Shown here one piece after another: positions 4,688 through 62,545 of a DNA stretch of 64,000 bases. Numbering within the stretch: the stretch's first letter is position 1; each line of letters opens with the position of its first letter. The position numbers were made by a program, and so were the translations under genes. The notes under the pieces are model-generated. The model was not told where the DNA came from, made no database searches, and was given only the letters and a program-made list of their open reading frames with translations. The stretch comes from Octopus vulgaris (taxonomy: Eukaryota), in assembly GCA_951406725.2 (NCBI GenBank), contig OX597819.1:32054001-32118000 (forward strand), written 5' to 3'.

Positions 4688-5054
4688 CTCTCTTTTACTC
4701 TCTTTTTTACTTGTTTCAGCACCACCTTTAGTCGAGCAAATCGACCCCAGGGCTTATTCTTTTTAAGCCCAGTACTTATTGTATCAGACTCTTTTGCCGA
4801 ATCGCTAAGTTACGGGGACATAAACACTCCAGCATCGGTTGTCAGGCAATGTTGTGGGGACAAACACAGACCCACAAACATATATACACACATACATGTA
4901 TATATAGAAGCATATATACGACGGGCTTCTTTCAGTTTCCGTCTACCAAATCCATTCAGAAGGATGTGGTCGGCCCGAAGCTATAATAAAAGACACTTAC
5001 CCAGAACCATGTGGTTGGTAAGCAAGCTACTTACCACACAGCCACTCCTGCGCC
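4688..5054 (-). mobile_element. SINE family A (tRNA-like head, internal microsatellite, (gtaaaaga)n tail)
   Basis: Matches the copy at 18374-18768. Confidence 0.8.
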
Positions 5055-5067
5055 TATGCGGCTAGAA

Positions 5068-5370
5068 AGAACGCGGTGAGGTGGAAGAAACGTTAACACG
5101 CTGGGTCAAATGCTTAGCGATATTTCGTCTGCCGTACTTAGTTCAAATTCCGCCGAGGTCGACTTTGCCTTTCATCATTTCGGTGTCGATAAATTAAGAT
5201 ATAATCGACTTAATCCTTTTGTCTGTCCTTCTTTGTCCTCTCTGTGTTTGGCCCCTTGTGGGTAGTAAAGAAATAGGTATTTCGTCTGCCGTTACATTCT
5301 GAGTTCAAATTCTGCCGAGGTCGATTTTGCTTTTCATCCTTTCGGGGTCGATTAAATAAGTACCAGTTGC
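5068..5370 (+). mobile_element. SINE family B, tandem partial copies
   Basis: Same central and 3' motifs as 1105-1490. Confidence 0.75.
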
Positions 5371-5473
5371 GCAAGCGATCTAAACACACTTCAATGTAAA
5401 ACAAAACAATTCTTGCCGTTTATGCTAGATCCGCCATCTTTTCTCATTTATTTTTTATCGGATTCACTCATTA

Positions 5474-5665
5474 GAATGTGGCCATGCTGGATCACCGCCT
5501 TGAAGAAATTTAAGTCGAGTGAATCGACCCCAGTACTCATTTCGTTTTAAGCCTGGTACTTATTCGACTGGTCTCTTTTTTGCCGAACTGCTAAGTTATG
5601 GAGACGTAAACAAGTCATCGCCAGTTGCCAAGCAGTAGTGGAGACAAATACACACGCACACACAC

Positions 5666-5731
<66 letters not shown>

Positions 5732-5890
5732 TCGCATATGTATATATACGGCGAGCTTCTGTCAGTTTCCGTCTACCAAATCACAAAGCTTTGTCGAGTA
5801 GAAAACACTTGGCCAAGGTGCCACGCAGTGGGACTGATCCCAAAACCTTGTGGTTGGTAAGGACGCTTCTTACAACACAGCTACGCCAGT
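5474..5890 (-). mobile_element. SINE family A, diverged, with internal (CA)n
   Basis: Homology to family A head and tail. Confidence 0.75.
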
Positions 5891-6724
5891 GTCTTTTGTC
5901 AGTTTCCGTGTATGTTAACCATGTCATTCATTCATCCATTCAGTTATCCATTGGTGAAACACCTTCAATTATTTACCTATCAAACACAACTTCCTGTCCC
6001 TGTCATGCTTTTCTCTATCTAACTTGTTTGTAGGTTTTCTTTCACAAAAGGAGCTACGGTGAAGACGCAGATGACCTTGTGGAATACACAGTACTTGCAG
6101 CTAAGTGAAGTTGGTGTTTGAAAGTTAAATGTCTTGGCCACGGACACAGAGCAACGTGGGTTGCAGGACACAAACAATTGACCGTTTGGCTGTTTATTAT
6201 ATATCCTGTAATCTATGACCTCATCTAACTGGAGCTGTCAAACCGGCAATGTCTTCGTATTAACCTTAATTGTCTCGCTGACAAGATTACTATGTAGAAA
6301 CGTTTTGCCGAAATTTTCTATCCAATGTTTCTAACGAAGTCATAATTTACCATAGTAATCAATTTATAATTATACTTCAAATCAATTACTTTGCAGTCAG
6401 TGCATTCAATTATGACAAATTGTTACAAATTTGAGTATATTATTGAAATATGAATGTTTTTTCTTTATACTTTCTATACCTTTTCTTTCAAAATTTTCCA
6501 GACCGAACATCTTATTAACAGTCGCATTATGGCAGCGTGCTGGGAGATCGTTAGCACGTCGGACAAAATGCTTAACGTCATTTCTTCCGACTCTATACGT
6601 TCTGAGTTCAAATACAGCTGGATAGGCTTCAAGTTCATTAGCTTCTAGGCTCGACGTAGATTGAGCTTCATCATTTTTAGAAAATGTGCTACAATCTAAC
6701 TAGTATCATATGAAATACTGCGTT

Positions 6725-10879: not shown

Positions 10880-12780
10880 TTTCTTTTTGTTCTGCCAAAT
10901 TGAAGTGTGGCAATTATTTCATTGTTTGATTGCTTTACTAATTGGTTGATTGAAGAATTGGATTGTTTCAATCGAAGTTAATGGTTTGTTTTTAATAAAT
11001 AATTCTAGAGGATTCAGGAGTGTTGAGGTGATGGCTGGCTGATGCAGTTGATGACATTTCGATTGTTTAATCTAGTTTATATTCCAAGTAAGCTGATACC
11101 ATTAATCTCACTAGTTTTAAATATAAATATAAAAGTTGACATCAGATAATGGACAGTACTAACAACACGGGGAATATCAACTGCGACTGTAATATTCTAG
11201 AATAACGTATGTATAGTAATAGCCGCAGTAACAATATTAAAATGAGTTTGGTGTAACATGCCTAGCCAGAAAGGAGTAAAGTAAATGGTGTTGGGTTCTA
11301 ATCACAGACGTTTACATCGTTCGACCAAACCAAGAGAAATAAGGAGTCAGTCTGTTTATATAGACAACACATCCAGTAGCTTCAGAGAACTGGGTGCTAC
11401 TAATTTGCATACTATAACAGGTGCTAAGATTACTTCTACAGGTGTTAAGGTTACCTCTACTGGTGGTAAGGTTACCTCTACAGGTGTTAAGGTTACTTCT
11501 ACAGGTGTTAAGGTTACCTCGACAGGTGTTAATGTTACCTCTACAGGTTTTAAGGTTACCTCTACAGGTGTTAAGGTTACCTCTACTGGTGTTAAGGTTA
11601 CCTCTATAGGTGTTAAGGTTACTTCTACAGGTGTTAAGGTTACCTCTACTGGTGTTAAGGTTACCTCTACAGGTGTTAAGGTTACCTCTACTGGTGTTAA
11701 GGTTACTTCTACTGGTGTTAAGGTTACCTCTATAGGTGTTAAGGTTACCTCTACTGGTGTTAAGGTTACCTCTACAGGTGTTAAGGTTACCTATACAGGT
11801 GTTAAGGTTACCTCTACATGTGTTAAGGTTACCTCTACAGGTGTTAAAGTTACCTCTACAGGTATTAAGGTTACTTCTACAGGTGTTAAGGTTACTTCTA
11901 CTGGTGTTAAGGTTACCTCTACAGGTGTTAAGGTTACTTCTACAGGTGTTAAGGTTACCTCTACTGGTGTTAAGGTTACTTCTACAGGTGTTAAGGTTAC
12001 CTCTACAGGTGTTAAGGTTACCTCTACAGGTGTTAAGGTTACTTCTACTGGTGTTAAGGTTACCTCTATAGGTGTTAAGGTTACTTCTACAGGTGTTAAG
12101 GTTACCTCTACAGGTGTTAAGGTTACTTCTACTGGTGTTAAGGTTACCTCTACAGGTGTTAAGGTTACCTCTGCAGGTGTTATGGTTACCTCTACAGGTG
12201 TTAATGTTAGCTTTACAGATTCTGTATAGAAATTATTGCCAACAGTGATTTTGTTACAACGTTTTATATACTTTCTAGTATATTATATTTTGCACAGGGA
12301 AATATGGTGTCCCTACACGTCATTGGCAATAGGTGTGTACTATAAGTGCTAAGTTTAGTTTACCAGTAAATCTCCGGTTTGAAGTATAACTAAGAATAGG
12401 TTGTGTTGAAGCTGCTTGTAAAAGATGGCTAGAACTGGTTCATCCTTGAGCGGGTAGATATATATTTAAAAGAAAAAAGAGAATGAACCAGCAAAGCGTA
12501 TGGTATCTTTTTTTAACCAATTCTCTCAAAATGTAATTATTTACGCCGACGTTACCCCCTTGATTTGGAAAGAAGAAAATCATTGATTCTTTGAATTCAA
12601 AAGGTTTATTGAGCCTATTTTATTGAATCTATTTATATGAAGCTATTTAGGTGTCCATTACATTGGACAGATGCAGTGTTGCCGCAAGAAAATTTTCTCC
12701 TGTAACAAGGAACACGTTTTTTATGTAATTTTACTTAAGCCTAGTGAGTCTTCATTTCCCCCAAGAATTTCATTTTTACT
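10880..12780 (-). pseudogene. Possible heavily degraded N-terminal part of a Penelope-like ORF surrounding the minisatellite
   Basis: Hand translation of the minus strand gives LLQEKIFLRQHCI...PK*LHI (~12720-12630) and NVINCISQP (~11060-11030), resembling PLE N-terminal FL..C...PK.L and VINLS motifs; many stops. Confidence 0.3.
11417..12207. repeat. 21-bp minisatellite (ACAGGTGTTAAGGTTACCTCT), about 37-38 units
   Basis: Directly visible; translates as (TGVKVTS)n in ORF 11285-12229. Confidence 0.97.
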
Positions 12781-18373: not shown

Positions 18374-18768
18374 GGCGCAGGAGTGGCTGTGTGGTAAGTA
18401 GCTTGCTAACCAACCACATGGTTCCGGGTTCAGTCCCACTGCGTGGCATCTTGGGCAAGTGTCTTCTGCTATAGCCCCGGGTCGACCAATGCCTTGTGAG
18501 TGGATTTGGTAGACGGAAACTGAAAGAAGCCTGTCATATATATGTATATATATATATATAAGTGTGTGTGTATATGTTTGTGCGTCTGTGTGTCTGTGTT
18601 TGTCCCCCTAGCATTGTCCCCGTCACTAAGCGGTTCGGCAAAAGAGACCGATAGAATAAGTACTGGGCTTACAAAGAATAAGTCCCGGGGTCGAGTTGCT
18701 CGACTAAAGGCGGTGCTCCAGCATGGCCGCAGTCAAATGACTGAAACAAGTAAAAGAGTAAAAGAGTA
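18374..18768 (+). mobile_element. SINE family A, young, small internal deletion
   Basis: Pol III A/B-box-like head, internal (TA)/(TG), tail (gtaaaaga)2. Confidence 0.88.
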
Positions 18769-19529
18769 TGCAAACGTAGACATACACGCATATACACGAA
18801 AACATATCTAAATAAGTATACGAATACATACATATGTATATGACCAACAAATAAATTAAAGTGCCCCTAAACTTCCACGTGGTGATAGGAAAATGTTAAT
18901 TATGCCGTACTTGTACGAAAGGTATCATCCACCCCATCATCCGCTCTCTAGAAATGTTCGCAAGTTACTATCGTCTCGTGAGATACGACAATGACGTTAA
19001 AATCATACGCCATGCTATACGCTGGAAGAAATGTCCTGAAGGCCTTACCCAAGGCATACCAGAACCAAAATGTATCCACACCTTTAAAAATTAATATAAA
19101 AAAATGACCGATGACACATTCCAATAAAAATATTAACCCTTTGTAAACGTTACAGAGCAGATAATATTATTTGGGACATGGAGAAAAACACGCTGTTTGG
19201 GAGAGATGAATTGTGTAGTGGATGAGGATGTCACGCCATATATTGAGGTAAAAGAAGGAGAACATGCGTATTGAAGAAATGAGGAACTCCCAACTCTTGT
19301 CTTTCATGTTTTATCTGTTATTTGTTTCAGCCATTAGATTGCGGCCATGCTGAGCACTGCCCTGAGAAATGTCTTTTAGTCGAATGAAATGGCCCAGTAG
19401 TTATTTTTCTTTTAAGTGTGGTTCTTAATCAGTCGAGGTCTTTTGTTGAACTTAGAGCAACACCGCTTGTGAAGCGGTGGTAGGAGATGAACAGACTTAA
19501 AAACACACGCACATAGGTATATATATGTA

Positions 19530-19735
19530 TATAGTTAATCCAAACATGAAAACACAAAGAGAAAACACAACAACACGAGGACGTGGAACAAGTATAGTAT
19601 TATTGGACGCACAGGAAAGAAGGAAAGAAGGAGGGTTTAACGTTTCGAGCGGAGCTCTTCATCAGAAACATAGGAAAAGGAAAGATCCGAAGAAGGGAAG
19701 ACGGAGGAAAAAAAATCACCAACCGTCATACGCGG
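19530..19735 (-). mobile_element. PLE terminal-repeat-like fragment containing a minimal hammerhead
   Basis: Homologous to 62358-62545 and related to the 3' end of the PLE at 25200-25645; flanked by (TA)n. Confidence 0.6.
19635..19669 (-). ncRNA. Minimal type I hammerhead ribozyme motif
   Basis: Minus strand GTTT-CTGATGA-A-GAGC-tcc-GCTC-GAAAC-GTT-AAAC: intact core, stems I and II pair, stem III is palindromic ACGT. Confidence 0.7.
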
Positions 19736-19789
19736 TTGGTAGACCGTATGTATGTATATATATATATATATATATTTATATATAAATTA

Positions 19790-20520
19790 ATAAATAAATA
19801 AAATATATGCATATATACATACATATATGTACGTACCTACCTCTACATGTATATATACATGCATATATGGGTACAGGACACCAAAAAAACGTCGAACACA
19901 TAAACATAAACACAAAACCAAGGAAATGGACATTTTTTTAAAACAACGAAAAAATAGAGTACAGGACATACAAAGCAAGGAAAATTCCCCTTCTTCAGTC
20001 GCCTTAATTTCATCTACTCCAGGTTTCGAAGGTCAAGGCGATACATGTCTTCAATGAAATTTTCCTTCCCGCGAAAATCAAATTAAATAAAATTTGAGAT
20101 TTTTTTGCGGAGGGGTAAAAATGGTAACAAAAACAGGATAGTAACGACAGTACAAAATATAAACAGTAAAAGACAGGACACGGAGAATAACAGTAACACA
20201 AACAAGAAGGGCTGTTAAGACAAACGAGATAAAAAAATTTTGCGAACGCTATTGTTTGAGACGCGAGAGAGAACAGATTAACGTCTCTACTTGACGGAGT
20301 CCAAGAAAGAAAAGACAGAAATAGCCGTATCATTACGTGACCGCGACGGGAGGGAGGAGGAGGAGTAAGAGAAGGGGAGAGAAAAGAAGAGAGAAAAGAT
20401 GGGGAATGGTGGTAGAGAAAAAGAAAAGAATGAAGAATGAGAGAGAGAGGGAGAGAGAGAGACAGTAAGTGGAAGAAAAGGAAAGCCCAAATAATGAAGG
20501 CTGAGAAAGGGAGAGGATAT
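19790..20520 (-). mobile_element. Putative PLE 3' region (CT-rich tract, structured motif, tail, (TA)n)
   Basis: Same layout as 24550-25660; tail homologous to 35263-35490 and 55512-55690. Confidence 0.5.
19983..20079 (-). ncRNA. Candidate permuted hammerhead-like structured RNA
   Basis: GTA, GAAA and CTGAAGA occur in that order, with complementary pairs GAAGG/CCTTC, ATTTCATT/GATGAAAT and TCGCCTT/AAGGCGA. Confidence 0.45.
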
Positions 20521-20542
20521 ATACATACGGTCTACCAACTGA

Positions 20543-20854
20543 CAGGACTTATTCTTTGTAAGCCCAGTACTTATTCTATCGGTCTCTTTTGCCGAGCCGC
20601 TAAGTTACGGGGACGTAAACACACCAGCATCGGTTGTCAAGCAATGCTAGGGGGACAAACACAGACACACAAACACACACACATATATATATACGACAGG
20701 CTTCTTTCAGTTTCCGTCTACCAAATCCACTCACAAGGCTTTGGTCGGCCCGAGGCTATAGTAGAAGACACTTGCTCAAGGTGCCACGCAGTGGGACTGA
20801 ACCCGGAACCATGTGGTTGGTTAGCAAGCTACTTACCACAGAGCCATTCCTGCG

Positions 20855-20856
<2 letters not shown>
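20543..20856 (-). mobile_element. SINE family A, 3'-truncated
   Basis: Homology to family A. Confidence 0.85.
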
Positions 20857-20894
<38 letters not shown>

Positions 20895-35122: not shown

Positions 35123-35262
35123 CGACGGGCTTCTTTCAGTTTCCGTCTACCAAATCCACTAGGCTATGGTAGAAGACAGATACCCAAGGTGCCACGCAGT
35201 GGTAGTGAACCCGGAACCATGTGGTTGGTAAGCAAGCTACTTACCACACAGCCACTCCTGCA
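34860..35262 (-). mobile_element. SINE family A
   Basis: Homology to family A. Confidence 0.82.
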
Positions 35263-35498
35263 CCTTTCGATACGTAGAGTAGATGAAACCATGGCGACTG
35301 AAGAAGGGGTTTTTTCCTTGTGTTATTTGTCCTGTACTCTATTTTTTTGTTGTTTAAGAAAAATGTCCGATTCCTTGTGTTTGTGTCTATGTTTTCGTTT
35401 CTCATTGTGTTCGACGTTTGTTTGGTGTCCTGTACTCATATATGCGTGTATATATACATGTAGAGGTAGGTAGTACATATATGCATATGTTTTATTTA

Positions 35499-35536
<38 letters not shown>

Positions 35537-48299: not shown

Positions 48300-49219
48300 T
48301 CTTTGCAATGTGGGGTCTAGCATTATCACAAGGAAACACACCGTACGATTCGCAAAGCAGCCTTTTTTCCCTTCAAAGCAGCATCCAAACGCTTTAATTG
48401 TTGGCAGTAGATGTGAGTAGTAATTGTTTCATTAATTCTTAGCTGCTCAAAGTGGATGGCTCCAATGCAATCTCAACAAACAAAAAGAAAAACCTTTTCA
48501 CAGAGAGGTTCTTTTTGGGTTGTGGTTTAGTATATTCTCCACCACTAAGCCATTGCCTGCGTTGTTTAACATTTTCATAAAAATCAGTTTTTCATCATCA
48601 GTCACTAATCTGTCCAGAAGTGATGAGATATGTACACGAGAGTGAAAAGATGAGCAGTTGTCCACTCCTGATTTTCGGTTGTCTTCTGTCAAATCAGAGA
48701 TAACCCATTTTCCAAGTTTGAGCACTTTTCCAAGTTGCTGAAGATGGCAGTGAACTGTTGAATTGCTAGAATTGAGCTTCCTTGCTAATTCTTCAACTGA
48801 TACAGTACTATCCTTCTCAAGCTTATCATCAAATTCAATAGGGTGTCCTATTCGCGGCCTCTCTCTCTTAGGCTGAAATCGCCATTTCTGAACTTTGCAA
48901 ACCATCTGCAACTTCTTTCGTTTAAGCTCTCTTCCCCATAAACAGAATGGATATCTCGGGTTACTTATACTGCAGTGTTTCCGTTTTTGAACTCATAAAG
49001 CATTATGTGCCTTAAACGCTGCTTCGATACGTCCATCGTTGAGGGGTTAATATTAGCAATTAATTCAGTCAGATTATTCTGTAGAAAGAAATTATATTAA
49101 GTTAAAGGTTTCGAAAGTCGTATGAGTATCAACCAACACTATTTAACATTTCAGAGTACTGTAAAATTTGATAGAAATTACATATATATTTCTAGCATTA
49201 TTTATGGAATGACCTGATA
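48300..49219 (-). mobile_element. Degraded mariner transposon, 5' two-thirds
   Basis: VEELARKLNSSNSTVHCHLQQLGKVLKLGKWV...RLVTDDEKLI, a WVPHEL/TGDEKW-like region; TIR-like ttatggaatgacctgata. Confidence 0.8.
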
Positions 49220-62296: not shown

Positions 62297-62357
<61 letters not shown>

Positions 62358-62361
<4 letters not shown>

Positions 62362-62545
62362 TAATCCAAACAAGAAAACAAAAAGACAACAACGCGAGGA
62401 TGTGGAACAATTAAAGTATTATTGGGCGCTCAGGAAAAAAGGGGGGAAGAAGGAGGGTATGACGTTTTGAGCGGAGCTCTTCGTCGGAAACATAGGAGAA
62501 AGAAAGATCCCGAGGTGGGAGGACAGAGGGAAAAAAATGCAAGTG
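62358..62545 (-). mobile_element. PLE terminal-repeat-like fragment with mutated hammerhead
   Basis: Homologue of 19530-19735; minus gtttCCGACGAaGAGCtccGCTCaaaacGTCatac; follows (TA)n. Confidence 0.6.

Follow-up and report, generated by a model that had tools for sequence, protein, structure and literature searches.

Hammerhead ribozymes of types I, II and III share one cyclic order of their conserved strands, namely CUGAnGA, GAAA and the NUH triplet of the cleavage site. Eckert et al. (2023, PMC10085705) divided the hammerhead into the blocks C, G and S, assuming block C to be uninterruptible, and described non-circular rearrangements. In vitro cleavage was shown for SGC, for CSG and for a single GCS RNA; only the GCS candidate stems from the genome of a known organism. 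Among Penelope-like elements, canonical hammerheads were not detected in the Naiads, some of which were flagged 'HHR_core' or 'HHR_half_core' (Craig et al. 2021, PMC8557442). Here we analyze a 64,000-nt stretch of the Octopus vulgaris genome (assembly GCA_951406725.2, contig OX597819.1; hereafter "the window", with 1-based positions), in which a non-coding Penelope-like repeat carries near its 3' end, on the minus strand, a hammerhead motif with non-circularly rearranged strands. This motif quite probably cleaves its transcript after the GUA triplet at 20042, a reading that rests on pairing patterns, conservation and the positions at which genomic copies begin.

The original prediction, made from the letters of the window alone, quoted a series of strands and helices, and all of them are present on the minus strand at 19983–20079. 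From 5' to 3' they follow each other as P0a-IIa-P4a-IIIa-site-Ia-IIb-GAAA-IIIb-P4b-Ib-CUGAnGA-P0b (Table 1), where P4 is an extra helix and P0 an outer one. The full hammerhead core is there, including A15.1-U16.1 and H17, and its order is site, GAAA, CUGAnGA instead of the cyclic order of types I to III. Rfam models identified no hammerhead (E ≤ 10 on 15–25 kb; gathering level on the whole window). A degenerate type I reading through a second GUA at about 20016 was considered and dropped, as subfamilies show no conservation there. Nested folding of the single strand gives no noteworthy signal (z -0.43), which is to be expected because the proposed fold is doubly pseudoknotted.

Table 1. Predicted hammerhead motif, its host repeat and a second copy of the repeat in the window (paired strands with duplex energies where calculated)
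Feature	Positions	Strand	Evidence and remarks
Non-coding Penelope-like repeat copy: CT-rich 5' part, putative ribozyme motif, ~220-nt 3' part ending in (TA)n	19761..20517	-	Boundaries common to six full-length copies (L004, L007, L014, L025, L027, L030)
P0 5' strand (outer helix closing the A9/G10.1 break)	20073..20079	-	Register uncertain in the window's family; 20079-73/19989-83, -4.1 kcal
Stem II 5' strand; G10.1 = 20068, with a conserved G (20069) before it	20064..20069	-	Cross-family swaps 0/2000; 20068-64/20032-28, -7.3 kcal
P4 5' strand (putative stem I-II interaction helix)	20053..20061	-	Two-sided changes at 6/6 scored pairs; swaps 0/1000; 20061-53/20014-06, -7.1 kcal
Stem III 5' strand and GUA triplet; predicted cut 20042/20041	20042..20047	-	Covariation; many genomic copies start just 3'
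Stem I strand after the predicted cut	20035..20041	-	Two-sided changes at 4/5 pairs; 20041-35/20005-19999, -10.4 kcal
Stem II 3' strand; C11.1 = 20028	20028..20032	-	Cross-family swaps; 38-copy alignment
G12-A13-A14-A15.1 (GAAA, 20027-24) and stem III 3' strand; one pair lost to a private C at 20022	20020..20027	-	GAAAC invariant in 38/38 copies
P4 3' strand	20006..20014	-	Swaps, alignment, duplex energy
Stem I strand preceding the core	19999..20005	-	38-copy alignment
Core C3-U4-G5-A6-N7-G8-A9 (CUGAAGA)	19992..19998	-	Departures in 0/210 cells, 30 close copies
P0 3' strand, after A9; no stem II here in most families	19983..19991	-	Cross-family pairing and swaps
Second copy of the repeat, sister subfamily, 5'-truncated, its start a few bases past the predicted cut	35262..35532	+	81% identity to the element

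In the source genome the pattern site-GAAAC-CUGAnGA is matched 4279 times and its reversed control 342 times; for a second pattern, which leaves out the commonest families, the figures are 1952 and 574 (overlapping matches may enter these figures repeatedly). This excess argues that the strand order, which the original prediction had singled out, is not due to chance. From 153 distinct matches we retained the 118 with at least seven of eight pairs in stems I and III, removed five truncated inside the motif, and clustered the remaining 113 into 27 families, each represented by one natural copy. Stem II, P4 and P0 played no part in this selection, and therefore provide independent tests. The strand before GAAA forms a mean Watson-Crick run of 3.89 with its own upstream flank and of 2.50 with swapped upstream flanks, a value as high as that of the own flank being reached in none of 2000 swaps; with the strand after CUGAnGA the mean run is 1.11. 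At least five upstream pairs are found in 18 of the 27 families, with at least eight different stem II sequences (e.g. GAAGG/CCUUC, GGCCGG/CCGGCC, GGGCA/UGCCC, GCGCU/AGCGC, GCACCU/AGGUGC and GACACC/GGUGUC), and the upstream partner begins with G10.1 and mostly lies 17–26 nt before the site. In swap tests based on duplex energy the native value was reached 0/1000 times for the upstream stem II, 0/1000 times for P4 and 6/1000 times for P0, so that both the upstream pairing of the strand before GAAA and the outer helix, as originally drawn, are supported across families.

Within the group of the window's motif, 38 of 61 distinct homologous copies were aligned. In this alignment 94.9% of the cells pair, compared with 45–51% for slid partners, and changes on both sides occur at 13 of 25 pairs (P4 6/6, stem III 3/5, stem I 4/5), stem II being nearly invariant; the covariation by which the original prediction was to be judged is present. 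We rely on the slid control and on the cross-family swaps, because related sequences can beat a shuffle control without any structure. G20069 and G20068 are invariant in 38/38 copies, and so are the G10.1-C11.1 pair and GAAAC, the last being part of the search pattern; C occupies position 11.1 in 26 of the 27 families, which is partly forced by the second pattern. CUGAAGA shows no departure in 210 cells of the 30 close copies collected by a DNA search, the families beyond these having been found with a pattern that itself requires the core. We are highly confident of the structure as such, i.e. of the strand order and of helices that covary across many families.

The motif shares with type SGC (HRIMA-1 and its variants, PMC10085705) the block order S, G, C, the full core, two pseudoknots, a short linker between stems I and II, and a helix joining the flanks of these two stems. 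In the octopus RNA this helix is P4, which links the stretch 5' to the stem I strand with the one 3' to the stem II strand and directly abuts both strands, in the place of the SGC/CSG interaction helix; the original prediction was right about its existence and mistook it for an extension of stem III. Block C, however, is not intact. The 5' strand of stem II follows CUGAnGA in type SGC, whereas in the octopus motif it lies upstream of the site, and A9, instead of being joined to stem II by at most 1–2 nt, is followed by the additional helix P0, which closes the gap. With these predicted pairings the backbone is opened between A9 and G10.1, a break that Eckert et al. assumed to be impossible, at the position of an extra U in SGC-1 (PMC10085705) and of a bulged base in minimal Penelope hammerheads (PMC4209133). 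Type SGC comes from metatranscriptomes only, in contrast to the thousands of copies in an animal genome described here, and its search descriptors, which need CUGAUGA(U)G and then stem II, would miss the octopus motif (PMC10085705). Type CSG (previously two metagenomic sequences) likewise has the same cyclic strand order and an interaction helix, but its block C is intact (PMC10085705). Penelope-like elements also carry minimal type I hammerheads (Cervera and de la Pena 2014, PMC4209133), which, together with the animal non-LTR (long terminal repeat) retrozymes (Li et al. 2026, 10.64898/2026.07.22.740005), resemble the motif in their terminal-repeat position in Penelope-like elements, in non-coding tandem copies, in G10.1-C11.1 and in the extra base by 10.1; they differ in having the canonical strand order and a tiny palindromic stem III, and in being dimer-dependent. 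The octopus repeat also forms tandem units, of 810–926 nt, but its motif is not of type I, which sets it apart from the non-LTR retrozymes.

In a full-text literature search, outside which most subscription papers lie, non-circular hammerheads were described only by Eckert et al., who are cited by a few others (e.g. PMC13725137, PMC11662667 and two preprints of 2026), and the same search returned no description of such RNAs in animals or Naiads, nor of a split at A9/G10.1. The claim that the RNA had not been described before therefore stands, within the texts covered, for the split and for the occurrence in animals, and falls for the strand order, which is that of type SGC. A 2017 paper reportedly dealt with small hammerhead variants in Penelope-like elements.

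The host of the motif was delimited by a DNA search of the source genome, which gave 1766 first-look candidates; the 40 that were scored are all at least 96% alike, and 30 loci were taken. They define a non-coding repeat of ~770 bp, with a fixed 3' end in (TA)n and variable 5' truncation, and 2627 places in the genome match exactly a 20-nt anchor taken 3' of the motif. Six loci contain partial copies in tandem (L005, L007, L013, L018, L025, L027), with same-strand motifs 810, 898 and 926 nt apart in three loci, and three contain inverted 5' pieces (L003, L009, L025); a 3' extension is found in L025 and L013 and is lacking in L005 and L030, and most junctions bear (TA)n (by eye). Tandem terminal repeats, 5' truncation and inverted 5' pieces make up the layout described for Penelope-like elements (PMC8557442), in agreement with the setting proposed in the original prediction. 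No frame with reverse transcriptase (RT) and GIY-YIG domains was found on the element strand in 16 loci (up to 4.5 kb upstream) or in the first 30 loci. A Neptune-like frame beside the motif in locus L111 was rejected as the coding partner, as it has no DNA in common with the motif; the permuted motif is absent within ~1.5 kb downstream of 30 copies of this frame, of 12 copies of a second frame, and of 30 GIY-YIG matches. Locus L111 itself contains members of two young, high-copy Penelope-like families with long open frames plus C-terminal GIY-YIG domains (4870-6378 and 479-2068, both on the plus strand), each of which matched 150/150 scored candidates in its search; the family at 4870-6378 has a hammerhead-like motif of canonical order in an inverted piece near 4800-4890 of that locus.

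The starting points of truncated copies provide a further line of evidence. A first look by eye suggested that 22 of 27 (TA)n-flanked loci begin at most 9 nt 3' of the site. We then took a sample that is blind to 5' ends, namely the first 90 matches of the downstream anchor on one contig of the source genome (C1), and located the 5' end of each by comparison with natural long copies, to an accuracy of about 2 nt. Nineteen of the 90 copies begin at +2 to +13 after the predicted cut, against 1.6 expected from a background of 0.002 per base (Poisson 1.7e-14). Twenty-two begin at 0 to +19, all of which were checked as true truncations (22/22), their best matches spanning several subfamilies. A single start falls within the 59 nt preceding the site (5.8 expected), and no other 14-nt window holds more than five of the 90 ends; this window size was chosen after the first look by eye, and two loci look like a duplication. 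The second copy in the window, at 35262, also begins at the pile-up position. Microhomology at TA seems an unlikely cause of the pile-up, as locus L002 has no TA or AT dinucleotide at 0 to +14, though sister subfamilies have one. Since 48 of the 90 copies extend past the site, cleavage would be partial or slow. We regard the pile-up as indirect support for cleavage in vivo.

Naiads have (TA)n targets and partial tandem and inverted copies like those of the octopus repeat (PMC8557442), and by our reading two of them, Naiad_Obim and Naiad_Ovul, end in the same architecture. File S5 of that paper holds 54 Naiad consensus sequences, and for 53 of these we read roughly the terminal 300 nt at the 3' end by eye. 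Eight of the 53, from a comb jelly, corals, a box jelly, octopus and squid (three phyla), carry the split form at this end, on the sense strand: Amil, Aacu, Obim, Ovul, 2_Movir (with an AUC site), Esco (with a decayed stem II), Bfor, whose stem I has only 2 bp and whose P4 has 15 bp, and Anas, with 6 bp in each of stems I and II, 13 bp in stem III, 10 bp in P4, and 8 bp plus 6 bp in P0. Type CSG with its interaction helix is cleanly present in six nematode Naiads (1_Nbra, 2_Nbra, 3_Nbra, Hcon, Hpol and Asuum), and neither form is found in the part seen of the other 39, where motifs further upstream would be missed. A 23-nt core motif of the published octopus Naiad has 538 matches (at most one mismatch) in the source genome and none in the control, and 10/10 loci of this motif are 5'-truncated. 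In two loci (L176 and L177) decayed Naiad-type RT fragments lie 1.4–1.7 kb upstream of the motif of a related family, on the same strand; they match the published octopus Naiad (RVT_1 E-value 1.3e-5, below the curated cut-off), and the endonuclease was not seen. The split motif is likely to be the ribozyme that Naiads were thought to lack.

Other Naiads show different 3' ends. That of Naiad-1_Movir, placed by eye beside the published twister alignment, resembles a twister ribozyme. Many 3' ends of bivalve and hemichordate Naiads and of one hydrozoan Naiad carry a GC-rich motif, GGCGGGTG ... GATGCTYACTC ... CACCTG, where other Naiads carry the hammerhead, and which is possibly an unrecognised ribozyme. 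In ostracod and spider Naiads the motif CCCCTGANGA recurs with an upstream G-rich partner and could be a further hammerhead arrangement.

If the octopus motif is a ribozyme, its helices would form a double pseudoknot within a single molecule and so build the usual hammerhead core, with P4 doing the job of the tertiary contact between stems I and II, and P0 would be an extra helix inserted between A9 and G10.1, the place of a bulged base in many hammerheads. When its ends are closed at P0, the motif has the same cyclic order as SGC, CSG and GCS, so that it would represent the same fold opened at a fourth point. Self-cleavage of this RNA has, in our estimation, a good likelihood. It would cut read-through or tandem transcripts into units of 0.8–0.9 kb, and the new 5' end of the unit would limit reverse transcription by a Penelope-like RT supplied in trans. 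We also lean towards the broader view that animal Penelope-like elements have carried active non-circular hammerheads since before the split of comb jellies, cnidarians and bilaterians, including the four-strand A9/G10.1 form as the missing Naiad ribozyme, and that these cut RNA in vivo and have left a record of the cut in the starts of genomic copies.

Several observations weigh against this interpretation. Stem III of the window's copy, with its one mismatch, amounts to -1.1 kcal; the mismatch is private to this copy (G at 20022 in 29/29 other aligned copies, and the same base at nearly all depth in contigs of 4/4 public runs), and it probably weakens the copy. In the window's family a competing helix of -13.5 kcal would sequester the 5' strands of stem II and P4, and P0 is weak, occurs in several registers and shows one-sided changes only in the 38-copy alignment. 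Across families, the scores of stems I and III are biased upward because both were used for selection (118/153), and nine of the 27 representatives have fewer than five upstream stem II pairs, either through decay or as false matches. The search for a coding partner of the window's family gave none, and no link of this family to a Naiad was found. Eckert et al. know of no alignment with more than 1–2 nt between A9 and G10.1 (PMC10085705), our literature search found no tested hammerhead with a helix there, and the core insertions reported by Perreault et al. (2011, PMC3088659) are located elsewhere in the hammerhead. Finally, hammerhead cleavage was not needed for insertion of the Poseidon element in vitro, where no reads ended at the site (PMC11167929).

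The missing precedent for a broken A9-G10.1 link could be taken to mean that the fold is conserved without cleaving itself, e.g. as a binding site or stop signal for a Penelope-like protein, with copies starting where RT stalls or where a protein cuts the RNA. Such a role would be compatible with the weak cleavage of Penelope-element hammerheads in vitro (PMC4209133), with their dispensability for insertion in the one in vitro system mentioned above, and with the 5' ends centring some 6–10 nt 3' of the cut rather than at the cut. It leaves aside that the catalytic core and the NUH triplet are kept in every family. Moreover, stalling at structure is disfavoured, because there is no pile-up where the enzyme would first meet the strong helices of stem I and P4 (four of the 90 copies begin at +30 to +50, against 3.1 expected), and the starts drop sharply 5' of the cut; we consider a non-cleaving fold improbable. 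The chance is slighter still that the window's family forms an ordinary type-SGC fold, in which the strand before GAAA would form stem II with the G-run located one base 3' of CUGAAGA, the upstream strand being alternative or inhibitory. A four-pair stem of this kind, with G10.1-C11.1, a 1-nt insert and a 3-nt linker, fits the published layout of SGC-1, is possible in six of the 27 families, the window's included (a further point against the upstream pairing), and has some standing in the swap test (38/1000). In the window's family, however, it relies on two G-U pairs and reaches -3.1 kcal, compared with -7.3 kcal for the upstream stem II, whose strand is 97.9% paired in the 38 copies; it is absent from the other 21 families and from the coral, octopus and comb-jelly Naiads, and an interaction helix at the SGC position, 3' of CUGAnGA, is unsupported (805/1000). 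Plain type SGC, which was our first reading, was given up in view of the cross-family upstream pairing and the swap tests.

Cleavage as a domain-swapped dimer or between tandem copies, through a knot-free canonical junction like that of the minimal type I Penelope hammerheads, is the least probable of these alternatives and very unlikely in itself. The tandem copies needed for it exist (810–926 nt apart), and minimal Penelope hammerheads do work as dimers (PMC4209133), but all partner strands of the octopus motif lie within about 100 nt on one strand, and single-molecule SGC and CSG ribozymes cleave (PMC10085705). The dimer put forward in the original prediction is not called for, stem III having at least 5 bp and being non-palindromic in most families. 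We therefore return to a single-molecule, doubly pseudoknotted hammerhead with a split block C as the preferred reading. If it is true, non-circularly permuted hammerheads would move from anonymous metatranscriptome contigs to named animal genomes, with thousands of copies; their strand order would lie outside the published six-type scheme, with a helix able to replace the A9-G10.1 link; and the stated gap of Naiads reported without hammerheads would be answered. The 5'-end pile-up would offer a genomic read-out of what Penelope ribozymes do in vivo, and the dozens of natural families are ready substrates for assays and structure work. Ribozyme censuses with canonical descriptors miss such motifs.

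The surroundings of the octopus repeat are rich in other repeats. Directly downstream lies a different (TA)n-flanked repeat (19516-19765, minus strand; second copy at 62344-62538, also minus), which carries a canonical minimal type I hammerhead (19635-19669, core from 19665, palindromic stem III), as in Penelope-like elements, 330 nt from the permuted motif, and which has relatives in at least 12 fetched loci. At 20517-20538, at the 5' end of the copy with the putative permuted ribozyme, there is a 22-bp inverted match to the start of this downstream element, so that both elements together are bracketed by an inverted repeat and may represent a single composite insertion. Copies of an abundant SINE-like (short interspersed element) repeat flank the region in opposite orientation (20543-20860, minus; about 18500-18690, plus). 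Further away, a frame at 48501-48992 (minus) with a weak helix-turn-helix match (Pfam E-value 6e-4, below the cut-off) is probably a remnant of a DNA transposon, and a tandem array with a 21-bp unit (38 copies, 91% matches) occupies 11417-12218.
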